This document shows positions 5,627 through 33,863 of a DNA stretch of 36,487 nt, piece after piece. A model generated the notes under the pieces. That model was not told the origin of the DNA and ran no database searches. It saw only the letters and a program-made list of their open reading frames with translations. The stretch is from an uncultured Acidobacteriota bacterium (GTDB taxonomy: Bacteria; Acidobacteriota; Vicinamibacteria; Fen-336; JAGNNV01). Numbering within the stretch: the first letter of the stretch is position 1; every line of letters starts with the position of its first letter. The stretch is taken from NCBI GenBank assembly GCA_964494295.1, contig CAZBTT010000001.1, positions 1-36,487 on the forward strand. Direction: 5' to 3'. The position numbers and the translations under genes are program-made.

Positions 5627-5695
5627 ACATACGCCCTCGGGGCGTGCCTGGAGAACTCAGGCAGCGCCTGTAGCATCGCCGAACCCGACGCGCCC

Positions 5696-18131: not shown

Positions 18132-18170
18132 GCCTATAGTCTGACGCACTGGTCTGTGCGGGAGGGAACA

Positions 18171-18918: not shown

Positions 18919-20328
18919 CTACTGGCGGGGCAGGGGAGTGGGGAGATCCGCCACGACGTAGGCGAGGAACGCGATCGCGGCCGCGTTGTCAGCGAGGGCC
19001 TTGGGGTCCAGCTTGTCCCCGGTGTCGGCGTGGGTGTGATGGAGGAGGAAGTACTTCGAGTTCTCGGTTTCAAGACTCGCGGAGGGAATCTTCGCGGCGG
19101 CCACCGAGGGACCGATGTCAGCGCCGCCGCCCTGCGGCCCGATGATGTCGGCGCCAAGGGGCTTCAGGAGTGACACGATCTCGGTCAGCGTCTTCCTCGC
19201 CGCGTCCGCGCCCGTGAAGCCGAAGCCTCGCGCCCGGAAAACCCCGGCATCCGATTCGAGAGCGAGGACGTGTTTGTCGAGTTCGGCCCGGTGCGCGTCG
19301 CGATACGCGTTGCCGCCGGCGAGGCCATTCTCCTCATTGGTGAAGAGCACCACGCGGATCGTGCGCTTCGGTTTGAGGCCGAGGTTCTTGAGGAGCCGCA
19401 GCGCCTCCCAGGTGACGACACAACCGCCGCCGTCATCCATGGCCCCTGTGCCCACGTCCCACGAGTCGATGTGGCAGCCCACGAGCACCACCTCATCCGC
19501 CTTCTCCGTGCCCCGCAGTTCACCGACGAGGTTTGCCGAGGGAGCGTGATCGAGGAAACGCGCGTTCATCTTGAGACGCAGCACGACCTTCTGCCCGCGC
19601 TTGACCATGCGATCGAAACGGTCGGCATCTTCAGTCGGGATCGCCGCGGTAGGGATCTTCGGCGCGCCTTCCTCGTAGCGCATGCCGCCGGTGTGGGGTG
19701 TCCTCAAACCCGGAAGTCCTACCGACCGAACGAGGGCGGCCACCGCGCCGACCTTCGCCGCGGCCGAGGCGCCGCCGCCGCGGTAGCGCACGGTTTCGCC
19801 GTAGTTCGTGTAGAGGACGTTGAAGAGCACGATCCGTCCGCGCGCTTCGTCCTTGCGTGCGTTCAGTTCGTCGTAGGACGACACGACCATCAACTCGCCT
19901 GAGACGCCTTCGGGGCGCGTGCTGACGCTGCCGCCGAGGCCGAGGATCGGCACCGCATTCGGAAACGGTTCGACGATTTCAAGGCTCTCTTCGCCGCGGA
20001 CCCAGTGCGGCGCCATCACCGGTTCGAGCCGCACATTTTCGAGGCCGTCCTTCTTCATCTCGGCCTCGGCCCAGCGAAGTGTGGCGTCGAGGTTCGCCGA
20101 ACCCGTGTGGCGCGGCCCGAAGGTGTCGGTCATGAAGGCCAGCCGATCCCACGCAAAGCTCCCTCCCGCATCCTTCGCGGTGGCGATGAGGCGGTCGGCG
20201 ACCGGCTGATAGGTCGCGAGCCACGCGGGTGCGGCGGCTGCGCCTGCCTTCGGTTTCTTCGCCTGGGCCCAGGCGGGGCTCGAGCAGGCGAAGGTGGCGA
20301 TCAGGAACGAGAGGGAAAGTCGGCGCAC
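18919..20328 (-). CDS. Exported M28-family metallopeptidase (carboxypeptidase-Q-like)
   Basis: 469 aa with a signal peptide (MRRLSLSFLIATFACSSPAWAQA). The zinc-ligand regions are ...VVLVGCHIDSWDVGTGAMDDGGGCVV... and ...VVLFTNEENGLAGG.... Confidence 0.85.
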   Translation of the reverse strand: MRRLSLSFLIATFACSSPAWAQAKKPKAGAAAAPAWLATYQPVADRLIATAKDAGGSFAWDRLAFMTDTFGPRHTGSANLDATLRWAEAEMKKDGLENVRLEPVMAPHWVRGEESLEIVEPFPNAVPILGLGGSVSTRPEGVSGELMVVSSYDELNARKDEARGRIVLFNVLYTNYGETVRYRGGGASAAAKVGAVAALVRSVGLPGLRTPHTGGMRYEEGAPKIPTAAIPTEDADRFDRMVKRGQKVVLRLKMNARFLDHAPSANLVGELRGTEKADEVVLVGCHIDSWDVGTGAMDDGGGCVVTWEALRLLKNLGLKPKRTIRVVLFTNEENGLAGGNAYRDAHRAELDKHVLALESDAGVFRARGFGFTGADAARKTLTEIVSLLKPLGADIIGPQGGGADIGPSVAAAKIPSASLETENSKYFLLHHTHADTGDKLDPKALADNAAAIAFLAYVVADLPTPLPRQ

Positions 20329-20400: not shown

Positions 20401-21105
20401 CTACCCGGCCAGGTTCTGCGAAGCGAACTCCCAGTTGAGCAGTTTGTCGAGTACCGCGGCGACGTAATCCGCCCTCTTGTTCTGGAAGTCGAGGTAGTAG
20501 GCGTGCTCCCAGACGTCGAGAGTGAGAAGGGGCTTCGCCGCGGTGGTGAGGGGCGTCTCGGCGTTCGGCGTCTTCGTGACCTTCAAGACACCGCCGTCGC
20601 TCACGAGCCAGGCCCAGCCCGAACCGAACTGACCCATCGCCGCGGCCGCGAACTGCTCCTTGAACTTCGCCATTCCTCCGAAGTCCTTCTCGATGCGGTC
20701 CGCGAGGTCCTTCGAGGGGGAGGTGGATTTGGGCGACATCGAGTTCCAGTAAAACGTGTGGTTCCACACCTGGGCCGAATTGTTGAAGACGCCGGCCTTG
20801 TCGGCCTTGCCCGCGGTCGCGCGCACGATTTCCACGAGCGACTTCTCCGCCAGGTCGGTGCCGGCGATCAGTTTGTTCAGGTTGTCAACGTACGTCTTGT
20901 GATGTTTCCCGTAGTGGAACGAGATGGTGTTCGAGGAAATGGTCGGGGCGAGAGCGTTGTCTTCGAAGGGGAGTTTGGGGAGTTCGATGGGCATGGTCTT
21001 CCTTTGGGTTGCGCCCGCGGCGGTTTGAGCGACGGAGGTCGCGGCGAGAGCCGCCATCGTGGTACCGCCGGCGGCCGCGAGAAACGAACGGCGAGCTGCT
21101 GTCAT
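20401..21105 (-). CDS. sodB: Fe-type superoxide dismutase with an N-terminal twin-arginine (Tat) signal peptide
   Basis: 234 aa. [14 protein letters not shown]...AQTAAGA is a Tat-type leader. The canonical SOD N-terminus [17 protein letters not shown]...FHYGKHH follows, then [16 protein letters not shown] (Fe-SOD type; compare E. coli Sod[16 protein letters not shown]) and [13 protein letters not shown]. Confidence 0.9.
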
Positions 21106-21219: not shown

Positions 21220-21759
21220 TCAACCGAGGCGTCGGACGAGCCGGGCCGGCGTCCCTGCAACGAGACTGCACGCCTCCACGTCTTCCGTCACCACGGCGCC
21301 CGCGGCCACGAACGAGCGCTCGCCGATCCGAACACCCGGAAGCAGGGTCGCCCCCGCTCCGACGAAGCACCCGCGCTCAATGGTGACGGATGCCGACGAC
21401 GCAGGGAAATGTACTTGCAGCGGGTGATCGCCGTACCCCACGTTCGTGTGCGTGAGGATCATCACCCTCTCCGCGAGCGTCACTTGCTCCTTCAGGTGGA
21501 TGCCCTCCGCCAAGTCCAGCAGACACTCGTCGCCGATGAAGCACTCCTCGCCGATGGTCAGACCCTTTAGGCCTCGTCGGTAGAGGTTGAAGAACCGGGT
21601 GTCATGCATGACAACGCGTTTGCCAATCCGCGCGCCGTACAACCGCAGCAGGCCGACCCGAACCGGTGGAAAAAGAGCCAGCCGGTAGGGAACCATCGCC
21701 AGGGTCATGAACCCGAACCGCCAGATCTTTCGCCAGCCGACTTCCCGTGCGGCCTTCAT
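21220..21759 (-). CDS. Hexapeptide-repeat (left-handed beta-helix) sugar O-/N-acyltransferase (WbbJ/WcaF-like)
   Basis: 179 aa. Imperfect hexapeptide repeats are present (...IGEECFIGDECLLD..., ...IERGCFVGAGATLLPGVRIGERSFVAAGAVVTEDV...), and the C-terminal ...LVAGTPARLVRR is typical of the family. Confidence 0.75.
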   Translation of the reverse strand: MKAAREVGWRKIWRFGFMTLAMVPYRLALFPPVRVGLLRLYGARIGKRVVMHDTRFFNLYRRGLKGLTIGEECFIGDECLLDLAEGIHLKEQVTLAERVMILTHTNVGYGDHPLQVHFPASSASVTIERGCFVGAGATLLPGVRIGERSFVAAGAVVTEDVEACSLVAGTPARLVRRLG

Positions 21760-21913: not shown

Positions 21914-23053
21914 TCACCCCTTTGCCTCTCCCTGGCGCCGCACCGTGTCGATTACCCGGTCCACTTCATTGTCGGTCATCTGGGGGTACAAGGGCAGCCG
22001 GAGCAGCCGGCCGGCGATTGAATCCGTGCACGGAAGGGGTGCCGAGGCGCCGATCTTCAATCCGTGAGGCGCGCTATGGAGCGGCACGTAGTGGAACGTC
22101 GCGTATATCTCCGCCTCCCGAAGATGGGCCAGGGCACGGTCGCGCATATCAACGTCTTGGTAGAGGAGGTAGAAGATGTGGTGAGCTGACGCGCGCTCCT
22201 TGAAAGCGCCAGGCAGGCCCACCGCGTTCCCGCGAGCCCAGTCGGCAAGGCCCGCGGCATAGCGCTCGCAGATGGCGGCCCGCCGCCGTTGAATCTCCGG
22301 AAGTTTATCGAGTTGGGCGTCGAGCATGGCCGCGAGCATTTCGGGCAGCACGTAGCTGCTGCCCTCCGCGACCCAGCTGTACTTGTCCACCTCGCCTCTG
22401 AAAAACGCGCTTCGGTTGGTTCCCTTCTCGCGGATGATCTCGGCCTTGCGCGCGAGGTCGCGGTCGTTTAACGCAAGCGCCCCCCCCTCTCCGCAAGTGA
22501 TGTTCTTGCTCTCGTGGAAACTGAAACAACCCGCGTCCCCCAGCGTTCCGAGCGCTCGACCGCGGTAGGCGCCCCCAAGACCGTGCGCCGCGTCCTCAAT
22601 CATGCGCAAACCATGGCGGTGGGCGAGCGCCGACAGGGCGTCCATGTCGGCGCCTGTTCCCGCATAGTGAACCGGCAGAAGGGCCCGCGTTCTCGCGGTC
22701 AGGCGCGTGGCCACGTCCTCAGGATCAAGGCCCAGTGAGCGCGGTTCGATATCCGCAAACACCGGGCGTGCCCCGACCCGCAATATCGCGTTGGCGGTAG
22801 ACGCAAACGTGAACGACGGGCAGATGACCTCGTCGCCCGGACCGATTCCGAGAGCCAGAAGCGCGAGTTCCAGGGCGTGCGTGCAGGAGGTGGTCAGGAG
22901 CACGCGCTCGGCGCCAAGCAACTCCTCCAGTCGTTTTTCCACCGACCGACAGAGCGGACCGTCGCCCGACAAGCGACCTTCAAGGGCTCGAGTGACCCGA
23001 AGGGCCTCGGCGTCACCGATCCAAGGCCGCGAGAGTGGAATTGGGGTGGTCAT
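21914..23053 (-). CDS. wecE: dTDP-4-amino-4,6-dideoxygalactose transaminase (WecE/RffA type; DegT/DnrJ/EryC1 family)
   Basis: 379 aa. ...GRALGTLGDAGCFSFHESKNITCGEGGALALND...AEIIREKGTNRSAFFRGEVDKYSWV..GSSY... and ...FHYVPLHSAPHG...RLLRLPLY... track E. coli WecE closely (GRALGTIGHIGCFSFHETKNYTAGGEGGATLIND...AEIIREKGTNRSQFFRGQVDKYTW). Confidence 0.88.
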   Translation of the reverse strand: MTTPIPLSRPWIGDAEALRVTRALEGRLSGDGPLCRSVEKRLEELLGAERVLLTTSCTHALELALLALGIGPGDEVICPSFTFASTANAILRVGARPVFADIEPRSLGLDPEDVATRLTARTRALLPVHYAGTGADMDALSALAHRHGLRMIEDAAHGLGGAYRGRALGTLGDAGCFSFHESKNITCGEGGALALNDRDLARKAEIIREKGTNRSAFFRGEVDKYSWVAEGSSYVLPEMLAAMLDAQLDKLPEIQRRRAAICERYAAGLADWARGNAVGLPGAFKERASAHHIFYLLYQDVDMRDRALAHLREAEIYATFHYVPLHSAPHGLKIGASAPLPCTDSIAGRLLRLPLYPQMTDNEVDRVIDTVRRQGEAKG

Positions 23054-23160
23054 GGCTCGCCCCGGAGAGCGCTAGGGATGCTAGCACCTGAGCGAAAGCG
23101 CGCTGGGATCGAACGACTGCCGGGCAAACCGCGGTTCGCACGGGCAGGGTTCCTCGGTAC

Positions 23161-23190
23161 AAGGCGCCTTCAGGCAGCGCCCGCTGCCTG
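23161..23190. promoter_or_regulatory. Two adjacent palindromes in the wecE/pilB divergent intergenic region (candidate operator)
   Basis: AAGGCGCCTT (23161..23170) is a perfect 10-bp palindrome. It is followed directly by CAGGCAGCG-CC-CGCTGCCTG (23171..23190), which has 9-bp inverted arms and a 2-nt spacer. The pair lies about 20 nt upstream of a TTGACA hexamer. Confidence 0.3.
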
Positions 23191-23210
23191 GCCGAAGCGG
23201 GCGGGCGGGG

Positions 23211-23244
23211 TTGACAAGAGTCAAGGCGGGGCATGGGCTAATAT
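23211..23244 (+). promoter_or_regulatory. Sigma70-like hexamers upstream of pilB (TTGACA ... TAATAT)
   Basis: TTGACA is at 23211..23216 and TAATAT at 23239..23244. The 22-nt spacer is too long for a canonical promoter. TAATAT ends 6 nt before the pilB ATG, and no Shine-Dalgarno is visible there. Confidence 0.2.
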
Positions 23245-23250
23245 CAGCAA

Positions 23251-25110
23251 ATGCCCGTGAAGATCGGCGAGATGTTGTCCAAAGAGGGACTGATCACGCC
23301 CCAGCAGCTCCAAGAAGCTCTCGCTCATCAGAAACAGAACGGAATCAAGCTCGGACGGGCGCTCGTCAGCCTCGGCTTCGTCAAGGACGACGAGATCACC
23401 GGCCTGCTCTCGCGGCAGTACGGCGTGCCTTCGATCAACCTCGCCACCTTCGACATCGATCCCACCGTGCTCAAGGTGTTGCCGGGGGAGACCTGCCGCA
23501 AGTATCAGGTGATTCCCATCTCGCGCGCGGGCGCCGTGCTCTCCCTCGCGATGAGCGACCCCACGAACGTGTTCGCCATGGACGACATCAAGTTCATGAC
23601 CGGCTACAACGTGGACCCGGTGGTCGCTTCTGAGATCGCCATTGAGGAGGCGATCAATCGGTTCTATGGGAGCGCCCGTTCTCTCACCCTCCGGCAGGAG
23701 GGTGGCCCGCCCAGCTCGGGCGGCGGCGGCGGCCAGCGTCAGGGCGGCGGCATGGGAAAGGCGCCGACCCTCAAGGAAGTCATCGACGGCCCGGCCCTGA
23801 CCTTCGACGACATGGCCTCGGTCGGTCTGTCGGAAGTCGACATCGACGCGATCGGAGACGAGGAAGGCGAAGTCGAAACCCTCAAGACCGAGGAAGACGA
23901 AATCGATCTCGGCGCGCTGTCGCGGTCGTCCGAGGCGGCCCCCGTGGTCAAGCTCGCGAACGTCCTGCTCATCGACTCGCTGAAGCGCGGCGCCTCCGAC
24001 ATCCACATCGAACCCTACGAGAAGGAATTCCGCGTCCGGTTCCGCATCGACGGCATCCTCTACAACATCATGGCCCTGCCCATGAAGCTGAAGGATCCGC
24101 TCACCTCGCGCATCAAGATCATGTCGAAGCTCGACATCTCGGAAAAGCGCCTGCCCCAGGACGGCCGCATCAAGATCCGCCTGAAGATCGAAGACCGCAG
24201 CCGCGAAATGGACTTCCGGGTGTCCTGCCTGCCCACCCTGTGGGGCGAGAAGATCGTCATGCGACTCCTCGACAAGAGCAAGCTCATGCTCGACATGACC
24301 AAGCTCGGTTTCGAGCCGGAGTCGCTCGCGAAGTTCAAGCGCAATATCGACAAGCCCTACGGGATCGTCCTCGTCACCGGACCCACCGGATCGGGCAAGA
24401 CGAACACTCTGTACTCGGCGCTGGCTTCGCTCAACAAGCCGGACATCAACATCATGACCGCCGAGGACCCGGTCGAGTTCAACCTCATGGGGATCAACCA
24501 GGTCCAGATCCGCGACAACATCGGCCTCAATTTCGCGGCCGCCCTGCGGTCGTTCCTCCGGCAGGATCCGAACATCATCCTGGTGGGTGAGATCCGCGAC
24601 TACGAAACCGCGGAGATTTCCACCAAGGCGGCGCTCACCGGACACCTCGTTCTCTCGACCCTCCACACCAACGATGCTCCCTCCACCGTCTCCCGCATGG
24701 TGAACATGGGCATTGAGCCTTTCATCGTCGGTACCGCGGTCAACCTCATCCAGGCGCAGAGACTCATCCGCCGGATCTGCTCGCAATGCAAGGAGGAAGT
24801 CCGCGACGTGCCCGCGAAGGTGCTGCTCGACGTGGGCTTCGAAACGGAGGCGGTGGGCTCGTTCCCGATGTTCAAGGGCCGCGGCTGCGCCACCTGCAAC
24901 GGCACCGGCTACAAGGGCCGCGTCGGCCTGTATGAAGTGCTGGAAATCAACGACGCGGTCCGCGAGCTCATCATGATGGGCGCGAACTCGGTCGAGCTTC
25001 GCAAGAAGGCCATCGAAGAGGGCATGCTCACTCTTCGCATGAGCGGCCTCGAGAAGATCAAGCAGGGGATCACGACGATTGAAGAGGTCCTTCGGGAGAC
25101 TGTTCTCTAG
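23251..25110 (+). CDS. pilB: Type IV pilus assembly (extension) ATPase PilB (GspE/PilB family) with an N-terminal MshEN-type domain
   Basis: 619 aa. The N-terminus, MPVKIGEMLSKEGLITPQQLQEALAHQKQNGIKLGRALVSLGFVKDDEITGLLSRQYGVPSINL, is a T2SSE_N/MshEN domain. It also has Walker A VTGPTGSGKTNT, Walker B/Asp box ...NIILVGEIRD..., His box GHLVLSTLHTNDA, and tetracysteine CSQC...CATCNGTGYKGRVG. Confidence 0.92.
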   Translation: MPVKIGEMLSKEGLITPQQLQEALAHQKQNGIKLGRALVSLGFVKDDEITGLLSRQYGVPSINLATFDIDPTVLKVLPGETCRKYQVIPISRAGAVLSLAMSDPTNVFAMDDIKFMTGYNVDPVVASEIAIEEAINRFYGSARSLTLRQEGGPPSSGGGGGQRQGGGMGKAPTLKEVIDGPALTFDDMASVGLSEVDIDAIGDEEGEVETLKTEEDEIDLGALSRSSEAAPVVKLANVLLIDSLKRGASDIHIEPYEKEFRVRFRIDGILYNIMALPMKLKDPLTSRIKIMSKLDISEKRLPQDGRIKIRLKIEDRSREMDFRVSCLPTLWGEKIVMRLLDKSKLMLDMTKLGFEPESLAKFKRNIDKPYGIVLVTGPTGSGKTNTLYSALASLNKPDINIMTAEDPVEFNLMGINQVQIRDNIGLNFAAALRSFLRQDPNIILVGEIRDYETAEISTKAALTGHLVLSTLHTNDAPSTVSRMVNMGIEPFIVGTAVNLIQAQRLIRRICSQCKEEVRDVPAKVLLDVGFETEAVGSFPMFKGRGCATCNGTGYKGRVGLYEVLEINDAVRELIMMGANSVELRKKAIEEGMLTLRMSGLEKIKQGITTIEEVLRETVL

Positions 25111-27394
25111 CTCGGGGCGGAGAACTTCCTGCCTTCCGGACACTGAGCACTATCCAACCCCAGGCCAGGGCGGAGAGCCAGAACCCGACTATCAAGCCCG
25201 GAGTTTGATAGTCGAGCCGAACCAGGTGTTCGCCAGCCTCCAGGTCCACCGACTGAAAGATCAGGTTTGCCGGCAGGACATCGTGGGGTTTCCCATCGAC
25301 GCGCGCGTGCCATCCCTCGGAATACGCGTTCAGGAGCACCAGGGTCCCGGGCTCGGACAACCTGGCTCGGACCAGTACTGAGCCGCCGGTATCACTTTCG
25401 ATCTTCGCCTCGGACACGGCCGCCGCCGGCGCCTCAGGCCGCCGGGATGAAGGCTGCGCTCCGATTCGGACAATCTCCTGCTCTCGATTGAAGGTCGAGC
25501 TTCCCATCGTTTGGAGGGCAGCATCTTGTGATTCCTCGCTCACCACCCTGTGGACCACGTAAGCCATGGGCAGGGGGTCGGGCACTTTGAGGACTTCCAC
25601 AGCTCGTTCTTGAAAAGTTCTTACGCTGGCAACGACTGGGAACTCGGCCGGGACTGGTCCGGCATAGCGAATGGCGTGGGTAACTCCTGCGAGTCGGAGC
25701 CATCGCTCGTTTGTGGTTTGGGCGCTCGAGGCGATGGCGGTCATGGCTGAGTACGCGGGCCTCGCCAGCCCGGTGAAATCTCCGTCGAAACTTCCCTTCA
25801 GTCCCCACCTTACCGACTGAGGTGGAAGAAGGAATTGACCCAGGCCGAAATAGAAGGCCTCTTTCTCCGACCAGTCCGCCGGAGACTTCCACGCCAGGGT
25901 GGGCGAGCGGGACCTCTGAAACACGTAGATCCTGGATGCTTCCTGTCGACGCAACTCGTCAACCAGGCTCGGTCGAATCCGGAAGATCTCCTCGGAAGAA
26001 TAAGAGTTCATGGCCTGGCCTGCACCCAGGAGGTCGAGAACCACGATGAGCGCGACGCCGAATTCGGTTCGTTGCGCGCGGGATACAACGAGAACCAGGC
26101 TGCCGAGGGCAAGCGGCGCCAACGGGGCGAGGCCCAGGGCTCGCTCCCACAAGCTGTCCCCCCCGGGGACGATGGACGCGCCCCACAAGATCAGGGCCAG
26201 CCCCACGAGTGCGCCGCCCAGCAGAGTTCCGGGCAGGCTCGTTTGAGGCGCCCTTCGGTTGAGCTCCCTGCACCCGATGGCTGCCAGTAGCGCCCAACAC
26301 CCGGACACGAACCACAGGATTTTTGAGGGGAACCGAAAGGAGGAAATCAAGGGAGCATCAGCGAGGAGTCCCGCGAGGGGTGTATGACGCCCCATGCTCA
26401 GGGCGATGGTCAGCGCCAGCAGCAGCCCCAAACGCGGCGCACGTCTGATTCCAAGCACAAGAAGCGGGAGAGTCGAGGCGCCCATGTACATGAATTGAAT
26501 CAGGCGCTGGCGTTCCTCGAGGTCCCCGGGCCTCTCCCCGGGGGAATGGGCAATTCCGCTGAGGGGGATGACCAGATCCACGAGTGAAACGCCCGTGACC
26601 GACCAGTGCATGCGGCCTGCGGGGTCGAGGTTCTTGCGCGAAGTCTGTCCCGCCAGTATCACCGTCGGCAGCCACTGAATAGCGGCCAACAGCAAACACA
26701 ACCCCAACGCTGTCGATAATTTGAGCAGGAAGGGCAGCAACCGGCTCCACCGGGTCGGCAACAAGAGAGCCATTCCGAGCCCCGTCATCAGACAGACGTC
26801 GGCGGACCCCGCGAGGGCCTGGAGGGCCGCCAGGCAGGCGAGCCTTTTCACGCCTCCTCGCCCGCTTCGGAGTCGCAGGAACGCGTCGAGAACCCACGGC
26901 ATGTACATGACCGATGAGAAGTGATGCCAGAGATTGGCGGACGAAACCACGGGTCCCGCGGCAATGAACACCGCGACGCCAACCAGCGCGCTGGACACCG
27001 AGCGCAGTCGGCGCCTGAGGAGTTGAAAAGCGCCCAGGCTGCCAAAGAGGGTGTGTCCGACAACAAGTACCGTGTAGGCGACATTCGCCGGGAGGATCCA
27101 GTTGAGGATCGAAGGCGGGTAGAAGAACTGAAAACTCGGGTCGGCCAGGAATGGCGAGCCGAAGGCAACGAAGGGATTCCACTGAGGCAGCCGGCCATTG
27201 GCCAGCGTTCCGGTGGCCCATTCGACGTGAGGCAGCCAGTAGACCCAGATATCCCGTTCGAAAAAGAAGCCCAGGCCGGCGACTGCCGGCCAGTACAGCA
27301 CCAATGCGAACCCGGCCGAAAGGGCAAGTCCCTTGAGGTCACGCGGCAGGTCCATGCCCATCCAGCGTGTCGGCTTGTCGCGCCACAATGTCAT
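25070..27394 (-). CDS. YfhO-like polytopic membrane protein (putative GT-C-fold glycosyltransferase), paralogue 1
   Basis: The start is taken at the ATG (MTLWRDKP...) that overlaps the upstream stop as TGATG. The longest ORF would reach 27484. There are more than 10 TM helices. The first loop reads ...FFFERDIWVYWLPHVEW...GRLPQWNPFVAFGSPFL.... The C-terminus, ...YSEGWHARVDGKPHDVL...LEAGEHLVRLDYQTPGLIVGFWLSALAWGWIVLSV, is a soluble domain plus a terminal TM helix, as in YfhO. Confidence 0.72.
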   Translation of the reverse strand: MTLWRDKPTRWMGMDLPRDLKGLALSAGFALVLYWPAVAGLGFFFERDIWVYWLPHVEWATGTLANGRLPQWNPFVAFGSPFLADPSFQFFYPPSILNWILPANVAYTVLVVGHTLFGSLGAFQLLRRRLRSVSSALVGVAVFIAAGPVVSSANLWHHFSSVMYMPWVLDAFLRLRSGRGGVKRLACLAALQALAGSADVCLMTGLGMALLLPTRWSRLLPFLLKLSTALGLCLLLAAIQWLPTVILAGQTSRKNLDPAGRMHWSVTGVSLVDLVIPLSGIAHSPGERPGDLEERQRLIQFMYMGASTLPLLVLGIRRAPRLGLLLALTIALSMGRHTPLAGLLADAPLISSFRFPSKILWFVSGCWALLAAIGCRELNRRAPQTSLPGTLLGGALVGLALILWGASIVPGGDSLWERALGLAPLAPLALGSLVLVVSRAQRTEFGVALIVVLDLLGAGQAMNSYSSEEIFRIRPSLVDELRRQEASRIYVFQRSRSPTLAWKSPADWSEKEAFYFGLGQFLLPPQSVRWGLKGSFDGDFTGLARPAYSAMTAIASSAQTTNERWLRLAGVTHAIRYAGPVPAEFPVVASVRTFQERAVEVLKVPDPLPMAYVVHRVVSEESQDAALQTMGSSTFNREQEIVRIGAQPSSRRPEAPAAAVSEAKIESDTGGSVLVRARLSEPGTLVLLNAYSEGWHARVDGKPHDVLPANLIFQSVDLEAGEHLVRLDYQTPGLIVGFWLSALAWGWIVLSVRKAGSSPPRAREQSPEGPLQSS

Positions 27395-29607
27395 CAGATG
27401 CGCAGGAAGAGGCAAATCAAGCAGACAAGGCCGGCTACGAGTGAGATGCTGATTCCCGCGACCAACCCGGGAGGGTCGTACCACATGCGGACATGGCTTC
27501 GTCCCTTCCCGAGCGGGACTTCCCGGTGACCATCGGGTGTTGAAAGTATGGATAGTTCGATTCCGTTGACGGTGGCCCTCCAGCCTTTGCTCATGGGCTC
27601 TCGGACGATGAGACCCGTTGGGAGGTCCACGACGACCTCGATCTCAAGGGTGTCCGAGTTCTCGTGGAGGATCGTCACAGGTTCGCTGAACCGGGGCAGG
27701 CCGCCCGCCAACTCGTAGACCCTGATCTTGAGAGGCGCGATTCGGTGCGGCGCGATCTCGGTCAACAGTCGCAGAGCCGGGTCATCGAGCAACTCCAGGC
27801 TGACGACTCGAGTCACGCCAGCGCTGCGCAGCAACGGCAGCATCAGCGGGAACTTTGTGCAGTCCGAGAGGTCCTCGGTCAGCACGCGTCGGGTGGCCAC
27901 CAGACTGGTGCGATCCGGGCTCAGAGCGGTCCTCACTCCGAAGGGGAGGTGGAAATCGGGCGTCATCGTCTCCTGCAGGGCGGCCATGGTGAGGGTTTCA
28001 TGGTGCACGCCACGGTTGAACCGCGCGTTCCAATAGCTGGGGCTCTTCTCGATATCGCAGGTGTAGACGCGACCGCCCGATTGGCGGACCAGATCCATTT
28101 CCTGATGCATCTCCGGAGACACCTGGTAGAAGTCAGTCGTCACCCCAGGGTTCAGGCCGGCTCCTGCTCGGACCAGATCCGCCGCCACAAGAGCAACGAC
28201 TGCTATTGCGGCCCGTCGGCTGGTCAGGAGGTTTCGCCCGGCCATCCAGCAGAGCGCTCCCGCGATGATGGCCACAGCGCCGCCGGTGGCGGCATCGTTC
28301 GCAATGAAAGCCCCGATCTGCGCGCGCTGAGTGGCCAGGGTTTGAGGGGGCAGGAAGCCATACAGGAACCAGCCTGTCCATTGCGGAGCGATCCACGGCA
28401 GGAGAGGGAGCGCGGCGAAGGCGCCACCGAGACCCATACTCACCCGACAAAGTCGGGTCAGGTAACCCGGTGCAGCATTTACGAGAGCGTCGGCGGCAAG
28501 AGACGTCAGGAGCGCAACGCAGAACTGAGCCGTGAAGAACGCCTTCACGGGATATCTGAGAAAGCGAAGGCCCGGAGACAATTCGACAACGCTCTCCCAC
28601 CCGGCGTAGCGGCCCAGTCCAACAAGAATCGCGATCAACGCCAACAGCCCCAATCGTCGGCGGAGTGGGCGCTTCACGGTGATTCCGACAATGGCCAGAG
28701 CCACGACGGTGGGTCCGAGATAGAGACTCAATATGTAGGGAAAACCCATCGGGAAGAAGTTCTCCCCCCACCAGAGGCCGGTTATGTTCGAAGTCTCACC
28801 GTAGAAGCCCGCGATGAATACTTGAAAGAGAGTCAGGGGGTGGATCGAGTGGGCCAGCATCACCGAAGGGGAAAAGCCTGAGGTCCGCTCACTCCCGGCA
28901 GAGGCGGAAAGAAGGGGCGCCACGACCGCTGCCGAAAGCGCCAGGGCCAGCCCGGCGGCTGCGGCCGCCCGCAAGAGCCGCAACCGGCTGTCGGGAGGTG
29001 TGAGCAGCACCGCCAGAATGCAGGTCTGAATCACGATCTCGAGGCCAGTGGTGCTGACCAATATCGAGAGCGTGATCGCCGCAAGGGCCAACTCGCGTGA
29101 TCCGCCCCGTTCAAGCAGTCGGCGAAAGGCCATGACAAAAAGAGGAGCCCAGGCAATGGCCTGGGTGTAGACGTAGAGATTGAGGCTGGACAGGGAGAAG
29201 CCCCCAAGGGCATAGACACCCGCCCCGGCAACCGCCCCCAGCGGACCGATCCGGAGCTCACGCGCCAGAAGTGTGAAGGAAACGGCCGCCATCGGAATGT
29301 GGAGAGCCAGAAAGAGAGAGATCCCAAACTCATTCGGTATGAGCAACTGCAAGAGGTCGGGGAAGTACCCGAAGGAAGACAGAAGCAGGGGTGTGCCTTC
29401 GTGGGTGAGCGGGTTCCAGAATCGCAGTTCACCACGCCCCAATCCCTCGAGGATGAACTTTCTCCCGGGTATGAAATACGCCGAGAGGTCCCGAAAGTAG
29501 AGGCTGTCTCTCTCGAGGAACAGCCTTATGAACGGAATGAAGCCGATGATCGCCGCCGCGGCGGCCGGCCACAGGAGGCCGTCTTTGGCTCGGTTTGGTT
29601 CGCTCAC
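27394..29607 (-). CDS. YfhO-like polytopic membrane protein (putative GT-C-fold glycosyltransferase), paralogue 2
   Basis: 737 aa with a GTG start. The first loop reads ...SLYFRDLSAYFIPGRKFILEGLGRGELRFWNPLTHEGTPLL.... There are many TM helices. The C-terminus reads ...MSKGWRATVNGIELSIL...LGKGRSHVRMWYDPPGLVAGISISLVAGLVCLICL (terminal TM). The layout matches paralogue 1. Confidence 0.72.
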   Translation of the reverse strand: MSEPNRAKDGLLWPAAAAAIIGFIPFIRLFLERDSLYFRDLSAYFIPGRKFILEGLGRGELRFWNPLTHEGTPLLLSSFGYFPDLLQLLIPNEFGISLFLALHIPMAAVSFTLLARELRIGPLGAVAGAGVYALGGFSLSSLNLYVYTQAIAWAPLFVMAFRRLLERGGSRELALAAITLSILVSTTGLEIVIQTCILAVLLTPPDSRLRLLRAAAAAGLALALSAAVVAPLLSASAGSERTSGFSPSVMLAHSIHPLTLFQVFIAGFYGETSNITGLWWGENFFPMGFPYILSLYLGPTVVALAIVGITVKRPLRRRLGLLALIAILVGLGRYAGWESVVELSPGLRFLRYPVKAFFTAQFCVALLTSLAADALVNAAPGYLTRLCRVSMGLGGAFAALPLLPWIAPQWTGWFLYGFLPPQTLATQRAQIGAFIANDAATGGAVAIIAGALCWMAGRNLLTSRRAAIAVVALVAADLVRAGAGLNPGVTTDFYQVSPEMHQEMDLVRQSGGRVYTCDIEKSPSYWNARFNRGVHHETLTMAALQETMTPDFHLPFGVRTALSPDRTSLVATRRVLTEDLSDCTKFPLMLPLLRSAGVTRVVSLELLDDPALRLLTEIAPHRIAPLKIRVYELAGGLPRFSEPVTILHENSDTLEIEVVVDLPTGLIVREPMSKGWRATVNGIELSILSTPDGHREVPLGKGRSHVRMWYDPPGLVAGISISLVAGLVCLICLFLRI

Positions 29608-29638
29608 GACCTAACCACCGCGAGAGTCGTCACTCCGA

Positions 29639-30400
29639 TCACGAGCGGTCTGGACCATCCGCTTTCCTGAGTGGCATCTTTTCGCCTCTCCGAAGCGAGG
29701 CGTGGAACCGCATCAGTCTGGCGAAGTAGCTTGCCGAGTCCCGAAGGCCGCGAACGGTCGAGGTCTTGTCGTCGCGCCGAACGTAGGCCCCCGGGATCTC
29801 CCTTATCTGAAGCCCGGCCCTCTCGGCCCGGATCATGAACTCGGTGTCCCAGAACCATCTGGGATCTTCAATGCGGTCAATGATCGGCAACAGGCGCTCG
29901 CGTCGAAAGAACTTGAAGCCCGTCTCGGTGTCGCGCAGGGCCGTCCCCAGAAATCGCCTCACCAGCCACGAGTACCCGCGGCTCATGAAATAGCGGTCGA
30001 GGGCGCGGAGTTGAAACGCATAGATCCGCCTGACCGTGGCCACGTCGGCTCCGCTCTCAATCGCCTGGACCAGCGACGGGATGTACCGACAGTGCACTTC
30101 CAGGTCGATGTCCAGGTAACCGGCGATGGCGCCGCGAGCGGCGCGGAAACCGTCCGTGACCGTGGCGCCGCGACCTTTATTGACGTCATGGAGCAAGACC
30201 CGGAGATCCATGTCCCGGTTCTGGGCCACGAGCTTCTCGATCAACCGCCGCGTGCCGTCCCGACTCACATCGTCGACGAACAGGATTTCGAAAGTTCGAT
30301 CGAGGAGGAGCAACGTCTGCCGAAGCTCATGGAAGCTGGCCTCGAGGGTTTCCTCCTCGTTGTAGCAGGCCAGAACGACGCTTAGCTTGGGTTCGTCCAT
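29639..30400 (-). CDS. GT2-family glycosyltransferase, polyprenol-phosphate-sugar synthase type (DPM1/GtrB/CsbB/ArnC-like)
   Basis: The start is taken at the ATG (MDEPKLSVVLACYNEEETL...). The longest ORF starts with TTG at 30436. Motifs: ...ILFVDDVSRDGT..., ...NKGRGATV..., DxD-like ...GYLDIDLE... and ...ETGFKFFRRE.... No C-terminal TM helices are evident. Confidence 0.82.
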   Translation of the reverse strand: MDEPKLSVVLACYNEEETLEASFHELRQTLLLLDRTFEILFVDDVSRDGTRRLIEKLVAQNRDMDLRVLLHDVNKGRGATVTDGFRAARGAIAGYLDIDLEVHCRYIPSLVQAIESGADVATVRRIYAFQLRALDRYFMSRGYSWLVRRFLGTALRDTETGFKFFRRERLLPIIDRIEDPRWFWDTEFMIRAERAGLQIREIPGAYVRRDDKTSTVRGLRDSASYFARLMRFHASLRRGEKMPLRKADGPDRS

Positions 30401-30488
30401 GATTCGCCGGCGTGGAGGTCCCGGGCCCACGCCCAAGGGGACGAAAATGGTAGCACTGTCCGCAGTTGATCCTTGAAGTCAGCTGCGG

Positions 30489-31322
30489 TCAAGCGCGTCG
30501 TGCGACGGCGATGCAACTTGCCCCGAAGGGCAGCACCTTTTTCTTTTTCAGGCGCCCGCGTTCGATCTGAAGCACCCGGTCGGCAAGAAAACGAAGCGGG
30601 CCTCCGCCCAAGGAGTGCTCCTTGACGCCCGGCTCGCTCGTGGTTTTCCTACGGAACCCCAGGCGACTTGGGATTGTCCGGAATAGAAAGACCGGAAGTG
30701 TGAGGGGGACGAAATAGTAGGACATGTAATCGACCGGGAAATCGGCTTCGCTCAACGAACGCCGAAGGCTCTCCATCGAGTACCGACGTTGGTGCTGCGC
30801 GTAGTCGTCGTCGGTGGACCATAGCCCCATGAACGCCGGAACGGTCACGTAGATGCGACCGCCGGGCTTCATGATGTCGTGAAGGTGGGCGAGGAAGGCA
30901 CGATCGTGCTGGACGTGCTCCAGGACGTCGAACAGACCGATGGCCGAAACCGAACCGGAGCGAAATCGGGCCGACTCGACGGTCGAGCAAACCACAGTGC
31001 GCAGACCCCGCCCGATGGCGTTCGCGGCGCCGCTCGCGCTGGGTTCAAGGACGATGCAGGAGTGCCCGGCGCTCTCCAATCCTCGTGCGACATAGCCATT
31101 GCCGGCTCCCACGTCCAGTATCGGGCCCTCGGGCGGAAACATCGCCACGAGGTCGACGATCACGGCGTTTCGGTGGCGAAACCAGAACGATTGGTCTTCG
31201 ACGGCAAGGCACTGCGTATTGCCGTCCGAGGGATAGCTGACGGGCTCCGTGCCCTCTGCCCGCCAGAACCCCGGTGAGGCCAGTTTGAGCCCAGGCGCAA
31301 TTGTCGAAAGATCAGTATCCAA
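30489..31322 (-). CDS. Class I SAM-dependent methyltransferase
   Basis: Motifs: ...QSFWFRHRNAVIVDLV..., motif I ILDVGAGNGYVARGLESAGHSCIVLEPS, and ...FDVLEHVQHDRAFLAHLHDIMKPGGRIYVTVPA.... The start is uncertain. I chose the TTG at 31322 because third-position GC rises only from about there and 31323..31483 looks like AT-richer non-coding DNA. The longest ORF reaches a GTG at 31499, which would overlap pilT; another GTG lies at 31439. Confidence 0.7.
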   Translation of the reverse strand: MDTDLSTIAPGLKLASPGFWRAEGTEPVSYPSDGNTQCLAVEDQSFWFRHRNAVIVDLVAMFPPEGPILDVGAGNGYVARGLESAGHSCIVLEPSASGAANAIGRGLRTVVCSTVESARFRSGSVSAIGLFDVLEHVQHDRAFLAHLHDIMKPGGRIYVTVPAFMGLWSTDDDYAQHQRRYSMESLRRSLSEADFPVDYMSYYFVPLTLPVFLFRTIPSRLGFRRKTTSEPGVKEHSLGGGPLRFLADRVLQIERGRLKKKKVLPFGASCIAVARRA

Positions 31323-31411
31323 AGCGGCTTGGAGCAGAAGAGAATGAAAACCGGTTGCGCGGACTGTACAGCAAGATCGGGGTCTGATCGACCCTGTCGG
31401 GAAGGATTTTC

Positions 31412-31427
31412 TGGAAAGCGGTATGCT
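31412..31427 (+). promoter_or_regulatory. Sigma54-like -24/-12 element upstream of pilT
   Basis: TGGAAAGCGGTATGCT compared with the consensus TGGCACG-N4-TTGCW. The GG and GC dinucleotides are at the correct 10-nt separation, and 9 of the 12 defined positions match. It lies 57 nt upstream of the pilT GTG. A sigma70-type -10-like TACAAT at 31443..31448 is an alternative. Confidence 0.22.
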
Positions 31428-31483
31428 TCCATAAAACACGCTTACAATCCCGCGTGTCAGCAACGATATTAGGAGGATTCTTA

Positions 31484-32632
31484 GTGGCCGACGCCCCACC
31501 GCTTTCGCTGCACCACCTGCTCAAGACGATGGTCGAGCGCGGAGGATCCGACCTCCACATCACCACGAACTCCGCCCCGCAGATCCGGGTCGACGGCCAC
31601 CTTCATCCGCTCGAGGGTTATTCGCCGATGTCGCAGTCAGACACGAAGACGCTCGCTTACAGCGTCCTGACGGACGCACAAAAGCACCGCTTCGAAGAAA
31701 ACCTCGAACTCGACTTCAGCTTCGGCATCAAGGGCCTCGCCCGCTTCCGCGCCAACAACTTCTTCCAGCGCGGCGCGGTGGGTGCGGTCTACAGAACCAT
31801 TCCCGTCGAGATCAAGTCCTTCAACCAGCTGGCGTTGCCGGCGGTGGTGGCTCAGATCTCCGAGAAGCCTCGCGGTCTCGTGCTCGTGACCGGCCCCACG
31901 GGTTCGGGCAAGTCCACGACCCTCGCCGCCATGATCGACAAGATCAATATGGACCGGCACGATCACATCCTCACCATCGAGGATCCGATCGAGTTCGTGC
32001 ACCAGCACAAGAACTGCCTGGTCAATCAGCGCGAAGTCCACCAGGACACGGCATCGTTCAGCAACGCCCTGCGCGCCGCCCTCCGCGAAGATCCCGATGT
32101 GGTCCTGGTCGGCGAAATGCGCGACCTTGAAACGATCGAATCGGCCCTGCGCATCGCGGAAACCGGCCATCTCACCTTCGGCACCCTGCACACGAACTCC
32201 GCGGCGCAGACCATCAACCGTGTCATCGACGTCTTCCCGGCGCACCAGCAGGGCCAGGTTCGCGCGCAGCTCGCGCTCACCATCGAAGGCATCCTCTGTC
32301 AGGCGCTCCTGCCGAAGATCTCGGGCAAGGGCCGCGCGATGGCGATGGAGATCCTGGTTCCAAATCCCGCGATCCGGAACCTGATCCGCGAAGACAAGAT
32401 CCACCAGATCTACTCGACCATGCAGACCGGGCAGGACAAGTTCGGCATGCAGACCTTCAACCAGAGCCTCGCCCAGCTGTACCAGACGAAGCAGATCAAT
32501 CTTCAGACTGCGATTCAACGAAGTTCACTGCCCGATGAGCTTCAGGACATGATCAATCGCGGCGTCGGCACCAACGCGGCGCCGGGCGGCCCGCAGCGGC
32601 CCGGGATGCCCCCGCGTCCCCCCGCACGTTGA
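31484..32632 (+). CDS. pilT: Type IV pilus retraction (twitching motility) ATPase PilT
   Basis: The GTG at 31484 is preceded by AGGAGG (31471..31476) with a 7-nt spacer. Motifs: ...LLKTMVERGGSDLHI..., Walker A VTGPTGSGKSTT, ...DPDVVLVGEMRD..., His box GHLTFGTLHTNSAAQT, and the PilT-specific AIRNLIRE motif (NPAIRNLIREDKIHQI). It has a Pro-rich C-terminal tail. Confidence 0.92.
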   Translation: MADAPPLSLHHLLKTMVERGGSDLHITTNSAPQIRVDGHLHPLEGYSPMSQSDTKTLAYSVLTDAQKHRFEENLELDFSFGIKGLARFRANNFFQRGAVGAVYRTIPVEIKSFNQLALPAVVAQISEKPRGLVLVTGPTGSGKSTTLAAMIDKINMDRHDHILTIEDPIEFVHQHKNCLVNQREVHQDTASFSNALRAALREDPDVVLVGEMRDLETIESALRIAETGHLTFGTLHTNSAAQTINRVIDVFPAHQQGQVRAQLALTIEGILCQALLPKISGKGRAMAMEILVPNPAIRNLIREDKIHQIYSTMQTGQDKFGMQTFNQSLAQLYQTKQINLQTAIQRSSLPDELQDMINRGVGTNAAPGGPQRPGMPPRPPAR

Positions 32633-32663: not shown

Positions 32664-33863
32664 ATGCCGACCTACATAGTCAAAGGCAAGTTCCGGGATG
32701 GAAAGCCCTACTCTGGAGAACGGGTCGGCGCCAATCCCGACGAGGTGACCGCCGGTCTGCGCAAGGAAGGCGTCACCATCGCCTCCATCGCGGAGAAGAA
32801 GAAGGGCGGCCCGAAGGCCACCGGCAAATCCGTTCCCGCCAAGCTCCTCTCGATCTTCGTGCGTCAGTTCTCGGTCATGATCGACGCCGGCCTTCCCCTG
32901 GTCCAGTGCCTGGAAATCCTCGGCTCGCAGCAGGAGAACCCGCACTTCGCGAAGGTCATCATCGCCACCCGCCAGGACGTCGAGAGCGGATTGAACCTCG
33001 CCGACTCCATGCGCAAGCATCCCCAGGTCTTCGACGACCTGTTCTGCAACATGATCGCGGCCGGCGAAGCGGGCGGTATTCTCGACACCATCCTCAAGCG
33101 GCTCGCGACCTACATCGAGAAGTCGGTCAAGCTTCAGGCCCAGATCAAGGGCGCGATGATGTACCCGGTTGCGGTCATCAGCATCGCGGTTCTGGTCATC
33201 GGCGTCATCTTGTGGAAAGTCATCCCGACCTTCGCGGCCATGTTCGCCGGTCTCGGGGCCGAACTGCCTCTCCCCACGAAGATCGTCATCACCGCGTCGA
33301 ACCTGCTCGTCCGCCTGATGCCCTTCATTGTCATCGGCGCGTTCCTGATCCAGTACGCCTTCCGGCAGTATTACGCGACCTACAGCGGTCGGCGTGTCGT
33401 CGACGGGATGCTCTTGAAACTGCCGATCTTCGGTGACTTGTTCCGGAAGATCGCGGTGTCGAAGTTCTGCCGGACCCTGTCAACCCTCATCGCGTCGGGC
33501 GTTCCCATCCTCGATGGCATCGAGATCACCGCCCGCACCGCCGGTAACGCCGTCGTTGAAGACGCGCTGATGTCCGTGCGGAAGTCGGTTGAGGGAGGTC
33601 TGACCATCGCCCAGCCGCTTAAGGAAACCAAGATCTTCCCGGGCATGGTCGTTCAGATGATCAGCGTCGGCGAGCAGACGGGCGCCCTCGACGCGATGCT
33701 TTCGAAGGTCGCCGACTTTTATGAGGACGAGGTCGACCAGGCGGTTGCGAACATGCTGACCCTGATGGAGCCCGTCATGATCCTCTTCCTCGGCTGCACG
33801 GTCGGCGGCATCGTCATCGCGATGTACCTGCCGCTCTTCTCCCTCATCTCGCAGCTGTCCTAA
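32664..33863 (+). CDS. pilC: Type IV pilus inner-membrane platform protein PilC (GspF family)
   Basis: 399 aa, with AAGGAG upstream. It has two GspF-type repeats (...LSIFVRQFSVMIDAGLPLVQCLEIL... and ...VSKFCRTLSTLIASGVPILDGIEIT...) and ends ...MEPVMILFLGCTVGGIVIAMYLPLFSL. Confidence 0.9.
   Translation: MPTYIVKGKFRDGKPYSGERVGANPDEVTAGLRKEGVTIASIAEKKKGGPKATGKSVPAKLLSIFVRQFSVMIDAGLPLVQCLEILGSQQENPHFAKVIIATRQDVESGLNLADSMRKHPQVFDDLFCNMIAAGEAGGILDTILKRLATYIEKSVKLQAQIKGAMMYPVAVISIAVLVIGVILWKVIPTFAAMFAGLGAELPLPTKIVITASNLLVRLMPFIVIGAFLIQYAFRQYYATYSGRRVVDGMLLKLPIFGDLFRKIAVSKFCRTLSTLIASGVPILDGIEITARTAGNAVVEDALMSVRKSVEGGLTIAQPLKETKIFPGMVVQMISVGEQTGALDAMLSKVADFYEDEVDQAVANMLTLMEPVMILFLGCTVGGIVIAMYLPLFSLISQLS

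Follow-up and report, generated by a model that had tools for sequence, protein, structure and literature searches.

Conserved gene linkage suggests that a new family of YfhO-like enzymes glycosylates a pilus protein in Vicinamibacteria

The window analysed here, a stretch of 36,487 nucleotides from an uncultured soil acidobacterium of the class Vicinamibacteria, carries a type IVa pilus (pil) gene cluster in which pilB and pilT are separated by a block of four minus-strand genes (positions 25070–31322). As the initial annotation had described, and as the gene calls confirm, the block encodes a methyltransferase, a family 2 glycosyltransferase (GT2) and two large YfhO-like membrane proteins, here called Y1 and Y2. 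Conserved gene linkage suggests that the YfhO-like proteins form a new enzyme family that glycosylates a pilus protein. Our preferred interpretation, held with moderate confidence, is that the window encodes a periplasmic glycosylation system tied to type IVa pili in Vicinamibacteria, in which a sugar carried on undecaprenyl phosphate (C55-P) is passed by glycosyltransferases of the GT-C fold class to a pilus-related acceptor. That the chemistry is of the lipid-linked-sugar and GT-C type, whatever the acceptor, we regard as highly probable. The comparative pattern consists of a conserved adjacency to pilB, repeated re-positioning of YfhO-like genes inside pil clusters, and fusion of enzyme to pilin.

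Linkage of the proposed glycosylation operon to pilB

Two synteny comparisons bear on the association with pili. For the first, metagenome contigs were scanned with a Y2 profile and the window proteins were mapped onto the 80 loci returned. Genes for the GT2 and for a hexapeptide-repeat sugar acetyltransferase lie directly upstream of Y2 at 52 loci, and in 37 of these they are joined by a gene for a DegT/WecE-type sugar aminotransferase (DegT). Every contig that extends more than 2.5 kb upstream of DegT (20 of 20) carries pilB, pilT or pilC there, in divergent orientation. The acetyltransferase–Y2 pair is found together with pil genes on 25 contigs, which represent 21 clusters at 80% Y2 identity and whose Y2 proteins have a median identity of 49% when compared in pairs. 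Gene content beyond the far end of the operon varies by clade (superoxide dismutase, M28 peptidase and pirin in one, others elsewhere) whereas the pilB side is constant, which points to retention with pilB and not to simple inertia. A lack of linkage to pil genes in relatives was the outcome that the initial annotation had set against its own proposal; the comparison came out the opposite way in all 20 contigs.

For the second comparison, species-representative genomes were scanned with PilB, and the window proteins were again mapped onto the 80 loci returned (L-numbers denote loci or contigs). In the four closest relatives (L001, L003, L005 and L006, with PilB 94–96% identical) the interval between pilB and pilT holds a third YfhO paralog, Y3, which is encoded on the same strand as the pil genes, is only 28–32% identical to Y1 and is missing from the window. 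Across pilB, the closest relatives have orthologs of the GT2 (79–81% identical), the acetyltransferase (70–72%), Y2 (56–63%) and Y1 (56%, in L001). These form an operon, DegT–GT2–acetyltransferase–Y2(–Y1), that begins with DegT and is directed away from pilB toward a dismutase gene. The window is a local rearrangement of this order, in which the GT2, Y2 and Y1 genes have moved to the pilB–pilT junction and a methyltransferase has been added. The idea that the WecE-type aminotransferase and the acyltransferase beyond pilB feed the block, put forward in the initial annotation, fits the relatives, where both genes share one operon with the GT2 and Y2.

More distant Acidobacteriota look different. 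At about 60 loci with PilB 62–65% identical, pilB and pilT are adjacent or, in Blastocatellia, about 0.9 kb apart, and no YfhO gene is found within 10 kb except at L066, L081 and L083. The pilB–pilT gap of Pyrinomonas methylaliphatogenes K22 (L027) holds an unrelated 268-residue open reading frame (ORF; 11810–12616) with an N-terminal hydrophobic segment and a very arginine-rich stretch; in several lineages of Acidobacteriota this junction seems to accept insertions.

Fold and conserved residues of Y1 and Y2

Y1 (25070–27394, minus strand, 774 residues) and Y2 (27394–29607, minus strand, 737 residues) each have about 11 transmembrane helices. Against Pfam PF09586 (YfhO; cut-off 28.5 bits) they score 36.3 and 44.2 bits respectively, the best stretches covering profile positions 775–835 of 835 and only the last ~60 residues of each protein. 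NCBI names their homologs 'YfhO family protein'. Pfam matches both proteins to YfhO and not to the ArnT or PMT families, ArnT appearing only as a relative in fold, and their sole NCBIfam matches are PgfM1 and PgfM2, at 18–22 bits against cut-offs of 1400–1500. Y1 and Y2 are homologous to each other over their full length (23% identity over 753 columns, E 1e-17).

A PDB search with a sequence profile from the Y2 alignment gave no meaningful match, and for this reason the folds of modelled proteins were compared. The AlphaFold model of Y2 is of high quality, with a predicted local distance difference test score (pLDDT) of 91.7 and a predicted template modelling score (pTM) of 0.91. Foldseek matches it to AftD (E 7e-8), EmbA/B/C, PglB, STT3, AftA, DPY19 and Pmt4; without exception, its best structural matches are to GT-C glycosyltransferases with lipid-linked donors. 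The model of Y1 is weaker (pLDDT 74, pTM 0.81) and matches AftD (7e-7), ArnT (4e-6), AftA and ALG12. The template modelling scores (TM-scores) of these fold matches are modest for both proteins, at 0.3–0.5. Both models show a polytopic N-terminal core and an extracytoplasmic C-terminal domain; the C-terminal part consists of a β-sandwich domain and a terminal helix. As modelled, both Y1 and Y2 have the GT-C fold.

GT-C enzymes carry a catalytic acidic residue at the position after the first membrane helix. Directly after this helix Y2 has the pair R39-D40, invariant in 49 of 49 homologs, and Y1 has R47-D48, invariant in 40 of 40 sequences; the Arg-Asp pair at this site is likewise invariant in 18 of 18 proteins taken from five subfamilies. 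By analogy, the pair probably has a catalytic role in Y1 and Y2. In the predicted reaction, both proteins would transfer a sugar from C55-P to an extracytoplasmic acceptor.

One Y2 homolog, P0090 (1274 residues, a JGI metagenome protein), has its Y2-like part fused to a polytopic module of about 500 residues from an unannotated family. This family, represented by L010 6018–7538, recurs beside the DegT–GT2–acetyltransferase–Y2 operon in many contigs, and the module may be another partner or another GT-C-like enzyme.

Predicted enzymes of sugar synthesis and loading

The GT2 (29639–30400, minus strand, 253 residues; PF00535, 88 bits) shows the motifs FVDDVSRDGT and LDIDLE. Its closest solved structures by sequence are the dolichyl-phosphate mannose synthase (DPMS) of Pyrococcus (5mlz, 4e-13), ArnC (9bhc, 8vxh and 9hwj, about 1e-12) and GtrB (5ekp, 3e-8); its top PDB sequence matches are to DPMS, ArnC and GtrB only, all of them polyprenyl-phosphate sugar synthases. 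The best NCBIfam models, PgfS (64 bits against 500) and ArnC (61 against 529), stay far below their equivalog cut-offs. No transmembrane helix is predicted in the GT2 and no hydrophobic segment rises above threshold, and the C-terminal helices of GtrB and ArnC are absent. Some polyprenyl-phosphate GT2 enzymes, such as the soluble DPM1-type enzymes, are also without C-terminal membrane helices. The protein is a predicted polyprenyl-phosphate sugar synthase.

On the other side of pilB lie the genes for DegT (21914–23053, minus strand, 379 residues; PF01041, 335 bits) and the acetyltransferase (21220–21759, minus strand, 179 residues), a left-handed β-helix (LbH) protein with hexapeptide repeats (Hexapep and Hexapep_2, 47–49 bits). 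DegT passes the NCBIfam model PRK11706 for dTDP-4-amino-4,6-dideoxygalactose transaminase (451.6 bits, cut-off 375) and fails the ArnB model (262 bits, cut-off 631). The closest NCBIfam models for the acetyltransferase are the WcaF and NeuD/PglB/VioB sugar acetyltransferase families, all scoring below their cut-offs. There is no rmlA or rmlB gene in the window.

The fourth gene of the block encodes a class I S-adenosylmethionine-dependent methyltransferase (30489–31322, minus strand, 277 residues; Methyltransf_23 65 bits, Methyltransf_11 46 bits). The lengths of its homologs, 277–285 residues, favour the TTG at 31322 as start codon. Together with the overlap with pilT that would result, they rule out the GTG further upstream at 31499, which gives the longest ORF. 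The family is spread widely among taxa, and in other organisms homologs at 53–57% identity adjoin genes for DegT, GT2, acyltransferase, dTDP-sugar enzymes and large unannotated membrane proteins. The operon of the closest relatives lacks this gene. Since the methyltransferase is soluble, it would act in the cytoplasm, on a nucleotide sugar or a lipid-linked sugar. These Pfam scores, together with the GT-C models of both large proteins, bear out the families to which the initial annotation had assigned the four block proteins.

Other YfhO-like genes in pil clusters and enzyme–pilin fusions

YfhO-like proteins of other subfamilies are encoded at other points of pil clusters. In L009, L010 and L030 the gene just upstream of pilB belongs to a subfamily termed 'up'. 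In L081 and L083, both from Vicinamibacterales, classic type IVa pilin genes, one to three in number, are directly followed by a YfhO-like gene of the same orientation. This pilA-adjacent subfamily is very large, with more than 120 clusters among the matches listed. On contig L098 (Ga0310121_10000006) the operon and an 'up' paralog adjoin pilT–pilC–pilS with no pilB detected between them, the linkage to pil genes persisting.

All four of the long contigs sampled for the pilA-adjacent subfamily (L168–L171) have the order pilB–pilT–pilC–pilS–pilR, one to three pilA genes, two YfhO genes, VKOR/DsbA, an ATP-binding cassette transporter, prepilin peptidase (PilD) and minor pilins. Three of the four, each from a different data source, have a second YfhO gene that reads through in frame, with no stop, into a complete prepilin module of about 170 residues (G|FTLIELMVVLAI). 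Each fusion is a single uninterrupted ORF (L171 11445–14609, L170 11424–14432 and L168 12196–14463), in which the last membrane helix of the enzyme is followed by an arginine-rich stretch and then by the prepilin module. The module starts G|FTLIELM and matches TIGR02532 at 34 bits over residues 885–907 of the L171 protein. In L169 the enzyme and pilin parts are both present and apparently frameshifted.

The predicted topology of the fusion is self-consistent, as the last helix of the enzyme would end in the cytoplasm, where the leader of a prepilin sits. An in-frame fusion is a classic sign of a functional link between the partners. Alternatively, the YfhO-like proteins might be non-catalytic pilus accessory proteins, such as pilin chaperones or assembly factors, built on a GT-C scaffold, with the GT2, DegT and methyltransferase serving an unrelated glycan. 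The place of the genes in core pilus operons between pilA and pilD, and their fusion to a pilin module, would suit such a role, as would the finding that no GT2 gene lies within 9 kb of the pilA-adjacent YfhO pairs of L168–L171. We consider it improbable, however, because all subfamilies keep the Arg-Asp pair without variation where GT-C enzymes have their catalytic loop, because Y2 shares an operon with GT2, DegT and acetyltransferase in dozens of contigs, and because the system is absent from some close relatives whose pil genes are intact.

Proposed pathway and acceptor

In the pathway that we propose, the WecE-type aminotransferase and the hexapeptide acetyltransferase would convert a dTDP-4-keto-6-deoxyhexose into the nucleotide of a 4-acetamido-4,6-dideoxyhexose in the cytoplasm, and this amino sugar may be modified further by the soluble methyltransferase. 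The GT2 would load the sugar on to undecaprenyl phosphate, and a flippase, for which no gene was found in the block or nearby, would carry the lipid-linked sugar to the periplasmic face. There Y2 and Y1 would pass it to an acceptor on the periplasmic side, with the invariant Arg-Asp pair placed in the first periplasmic loop. What is inferred in this scheme is which sugar and which lipid carrier are used, what the acceptor is, how Y1 and Y2 share the work, and what the methyltransferase does.

The most likely acceptor would be a pilin, major or minor. Until it is assembled, pilin resides in the inner membrane and its globular domain faces the periplasm. Pilin is favoured because of this periplasmic domain, the synteny seen with pilB and Y2 as anchors, and the other YfhO genes and fusions in pil clusters. 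Both pilin as acceptor and methyl-glycosylation, raised as possibilities in the initial annotation, are inferences.

A number of observations weigh against this interpretation. Other organisms have the same module (DegT, GT2, acyltransferase, methyltransferase and large membrane protein) in the absence of pil genes, and Y2-like paralogs that lack the operon (L004, L134, L162 and L164) are not near pil genes. The pilA-adjacent and pilin-fused subfamily is only 25–28% identical to Y1 and Y2, and the Pfam YfhO matches of Y1 and Y2 are confined to their C-terminal ends, as described above. A dedicated flippase gene of the GtrA/SMR-like or MATE type is lacking, as 25070–31322 holds no further ORF and no small polytopic ORF lies nearby; such a gene may be located in another part of the genome. 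With the contig ending inside pilR, the pilA of the window organism lies off the contig. In L006, the closest relative that has a pilin gene, Ser and Thr make up only 14% of the globular part of the pilin. The Ser/Thr fraction of pilins is 0.14–0.35 where YfhO genes are present in the locus and 0.15–0.29 where they are not, a weak trend from few loci with overlapping ranges. Finally, L005 has none of the genes of the DegT operon, and close relatives keep different subsets of them. Because L005 has none, the glycosylation system is dispensable for making pili; it is accessory to pilus biogenesis and not required for it. Strain-specific pilin glycosylation in Pseudomonas presents a comparable situation.

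Alternatively, the same lipid-linked-sugar and GT-C machinery may act on a non-pilus acceptor (lipid A or the lipopolysaccharide core, as Arn does; an O-antigen or exopolysaccharide side chain, as Gtr systems do; or many envelope proteins, with pilin at most one of them), the linkage to pilB then reflecting shared regulation or history. The occurrence of the module without pil genes agrees with this. So does the variable gene set, which resembles that of a surface-glycan locus, with YfhO proteins 51–63% identical where PilB is 94–96% identical. Streptococcal YfhO-type enzymes have many protein targets (bioRxiv 10.1101/2024.05.05.592596). The layout of aminotransferase, N-acyltransferase, GT2 and GT-C protein also parallels ArnB/ArnA/ArnC/ArnT, with ArnC near the GT2 and ArnT near the fold of Y1, but DegT clearly falls short of the ArnB model (262 against 631 bits). 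A non-pilus acceptor leaves unexplained why 20 of 20 contigs keep the adjacency to pilB at a median Y2 identity of 49%, why several YfhO subfamilies have settled independently at different points of pil clusters, and why YfhO proteins are fused in frame to pilins. We regard a non-pilus acceptor as a serious but rather unlikely alternative, and retain a pilus-related acceptor as our preferred interpretation. If the acceptor is not a pilin, what is left is an unremarkable operon for modifying a surface glycan, beside a neighbour that is unusual though conserved.

A more far-reaching proposal, which we make only tentatively, is that YfhO-like GT-C proteins are dedicated pilin glycosyltransferases, an integral but so far unrecognised part of the type IVa pilus gene set across Vicinamibacteria, and constitute a third independent route of pilin glycosylation after TfpO/PglL and TfpW. 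The window would then represent a GT2-fed pair between pilB and pilT, the genes after pilA would represent the form found in other lineages, and the pilin part of the fusions would be released by prepilin peptidase.

Comparison with known glycosylation systems

To our knowledge, only two types of enzyme that glycosylate pilin have been described, the O-antigen-ligase-like TfpO/PglL and the arabinosyltransferase TfpW. Pilin glycosylation affects pilus function, recognition by phages and predators, and surface properties. If our interpretation is correct, a YfhO-type route that uses a lipid-linked monosaccharide would be a third, found in an abundant and little-studied soil phylum; YfhO-type protein glycosylation would be extended from Firmicutes to Gram-negative bacteria, and a very large family of uncharacterised acidobacterial membrane proteins would gain a concrete acceptor.

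The nearest parallels in enzyme type are streptococcal. YfhO-family enzymes (PgtC2 and PgfM1), each working with a GT2, O-glycosylate extracytoplasmic Ser/Thr-rich regions of proteins in streptococci (bioRxiv 10.1101/2024.05.05.592596). GtrB/PgtC2 of Streptococcus pyogenes and PgfS–PgfM1–PgfE–PgfM2 of Streptococcus mutans resemble the window in combining a GT2 with a YfhO-type GT-C protein, in the Pgf case with two, and in having as acceptors the extracytoplasmic parts of membrane-associated proteins. PgfS is also the top NCBIfam match of the GT2. The GT2 and two YfhO-type genes of the window stand in one co-directional array, an arrangement analogous to that of Pgf, but there is no epimerase corresponding to PgfE, and the genes lie in a type IV pilus locus and not beside adhesin genes. 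The window genes are not Pgf orthologs, since their scores reach only a fraction of the equivalog cut-offs (64 against 500, and 18–22 against 1400–1500), and the system is not orthologous to any other characterised one. The window also differs from the streptococcal systems in its Gram-negative acidobacterial host and in its predicted sugar, a dTDP-derived 4-amino-6-deoxyhexose where those systems use Glc or GalNAc. Among the papers searched, none connects YfhO-type enzymes to pili or to Acidobacteriota. The initial annotation had held a YfhO-type system in a type IV pilus locus to be new; the novelty lies in the link to pili and in the phylum, as protein glycosylation by YfhO-type enzymes was already known from streptococci (bioRxiv 10.1101/2024.05.05.592596).

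CsbB/YfhO of Bacillus subtilis and the GtlA/GtlB and Lmo2550/GtcA/Lmo1079 systems of Listeria glycosylate teichoic acid, with a GT2 that makes the C55-P-sugar, a flipping step, and transfer on the outside by a YfhO-type GT-C enzyme (PMC5836110). The window genes imply the same three-step logic. They differ in the acceptor, teichoic acid in those systems, and in having no counterpart of the GtcA/GtrA-type flippase. A Gram-negative acidobacterium is not expected to make teichoic acid.

In Pseudomonas, pilin is glycosylated by the GT-C enzyme TfpW (bioRxiv 10.1101/2020.04.19.049825). TfpW, encoded beside pilA in P. aeruginosa group IV strains, is a GT-C protein that modifies pilin in the periplasm with a polyprenyl-phosphate sugar, a role like that proposed here for Y1 and Y2. 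It is an arabinosyltransferase, and in fold Y1 and Y2 best match arabinofuranosyltransferases of mycobacteria (AftD, AftA and Emb). Relatives moreover have a YfhO-like gene in the same place, directly after pilA (L081, L083 and L168–L171), although it belongs to a different subfamily from Y1 and Y2. The window genes differ in belonging to the Pfam YfhO family, in drawing their donor from a GT2 and a nucleotide sugar in place of the decaprenyl-phosphoribose route, and in lying between pilB and pilT, not after pilA.

TfpO/PilO and PglL share with the proposed system the periplasmic glycosylation of pilin by an inner-membrane enzyme often encoded beside pilA. They have a Wzy_C domain, however, and use a preassembled oligosaccharide linked to undecaprenyl pyrophosphate. 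Pfam and NCBIfam detect no Wzy_C or O-antigen-ligase-like domain in any protein of the region, and the window system is for that reason not of the TfpO/PglL type.

The Arn pathway (ArnB, ArnA, ArnC and ArnT) likewise comprises an aminotransferase, an N-acyl step, a GT2 that is an undecaprenyl-phosphate sugar synthase, and a GT-C enzyme. The window does not encode an Arn pathway, because its DegT is of the WecE type and not ArnB. The three-component Gtr systems for O-antigen modification (GtrA, GtrB and Gtr*) follow the same lipid-linked-sugar scheme (PMC11127046). In contrast to both, the GT2 of the window has no C-terminal membrane helices such as those in ArnC and GtrB, a flippase of the ArnE/F or GtrA kind is missing, and the GT-C proteins are of the YfhO type, with a C-terminal β-sandwich and terminal helix; their acceptor is probably a protein.

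Origin of the block

The initial annotation had described the block as an insertion and allowed that it might be an unrelated island. It is, instead, part of a conserved pilB-side operon that has been relocated in this lineage, with one methyltransferase gene added. Chance landing of a horizontally acquired island between pilB and pilT is very unlikely and already largely refuted. In its favour are the slightly lower G+C content of the block, a G+C content at third codon positions (GC3) below that of the pil genes, the wide taxonomic spread of the methyltransferase family and its absence from the operon of the relatives, and the unrelated insertions at the pilB–pilT junction of other Acidobacteriota. 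Against it, the nearest relatives carry orthologs of the GT2 (79–81%), Y2 (56–63%) and Y1 (56%) across pilB, and because these orthologs flank pilB we consider the block genes native to this neighbourhood.

The composition of the block agrees with that of native genes. Its G+C content is 62.3%, compared with 63.9% for the window, and ranks 56th lowest among 303 windows of equal length; the block is thus slightly less GC-rich, as had been noted by eye, but it lies within the normal range and is not anomalous. GC3 of the block (0.73–0.79) is below that of the pil genes overall and equals that of DegT, pilS and pirin and of the orthologous YfhO genes in relatives. The rank and the equality of GC3 with native genes show no mark of a foreign origin. 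Searches around the block turned up neither tRNA nor mobility genes, and no flanking repeats beyond short ones at chance level.

The earlier interpretation is thus supported in part: its family assignments hold, the linkage to pil genes is borne out and its feeder genes fit the relatives, but the description of the block as an insertion has to be corrected.

Gene organisation of the pil locus

The window has an overall G+C content of about 64%. The pil genes are all on the plus strand. PilB, the type IVa pilus assembly ATPase (23251–25110, 619 residues), has T2SSE and MshEN domains and scores 763 bits against TIGR02538 (cut-off 676). Its gene is convergent with that of Y1, and the 3′ ends of the two overlap by 41 nucleotides. 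The junctions within the block, given previously as gaps of 88 and 31 nucleotides and a 1-nucleotide overlap, all proved correct on re-reading. Beyond the block, pilT (31484–32632) encodes the retraction ATPase of 382 residues (TIGR01420, 492 bits, cut-off 319) and has a GTG start 8 nucleotides after AGGAGG. It is followed by pilC, for the platform protein (32664–33863; T2SSF 224 bits, Myxococcus-type PilC model 466 bits, below its cut-off of 700), by pilS, for a sensor histidine kinase with 6TM_PilS, PAS, HisKA and HATPase_c domains (33921–35567), and by pilR, for a sigma-54-dependent response regulator with Response_reg and Sigma54_activat domains (35564–36487, cut by the contig end). The ATGA overlap of pilS and pilR, also reported previously, is seen directly in the sequence. 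Two contigs, L085 and L165, repeat the window arrangement at 93–99% protein identity, and from this we conclude that the block arrangement is real, not an assembly artefact, and a trait of a species-level lineage.

Two divergent intergenic regions were read from the sequence, one between DegT and pilB (23054–23250), where the same divergent junction is kept in relatives, and one between the methyltransferase gene and pilT (31323–31483). A consensus scan of 22900–31700, including the DegT/pilB spacer, gave no sigma-70-like promoter, a result that is uninformative for this phylum, and terminator-like sites only at chance level. The sigma-54 promoter pattern gave 23 matches where about 48 are expected by chance. 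One GG-N10-GC-like site lies at 31412–31427 in the methyltransferase/pilT spacer; such sites are no commoner than chance, and it carries no evidential weight.

Further downstream of the acetyltransferase gene, on the minus strand, gene calls and family scans identify genes for a superoxide dismutase of the Fe/Mn type (20401–21105), an M28 peptidase (18919–20328) and a pirin (17301–18137). An N-terminal extension of the dismutase looks like a signal for twin-arginine export, which suggests a periplasmic enzyme.

Other membrane proteins near pilB

The loci of the relatives contain further large membrane proteins that are absent from the window. A polytopic family of about 637 residues is encoded directly upstream of pilB, and another, of about 424–436 residues, between Y1 and the dismutase gene; the two are represented by L001 5491–7404 and 14712–15986, L003 6545–8464 and L005 8642–9937. 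Pfam and NCBIfam give no matches for these two families (u637 and u436) or for the L010_506 family, all of which look polytopic.

Large polytopic proteins with similarity to spermine/spermidine synthases are encoded immediately beside pilB in L005 (11799–14414) and L008 (6972–9788). The window also encodes a large polytopic protein with a spermine/spermidine-synthase-like domain and TPR repeats (4934–8836), next to a 655-residue multihaem cytochrome c-like protein with HEAT and TPR repeats (3126–5093, minus strand). The longest ORFs of these two genes overlap by 160 nucleotides (4934–5093).

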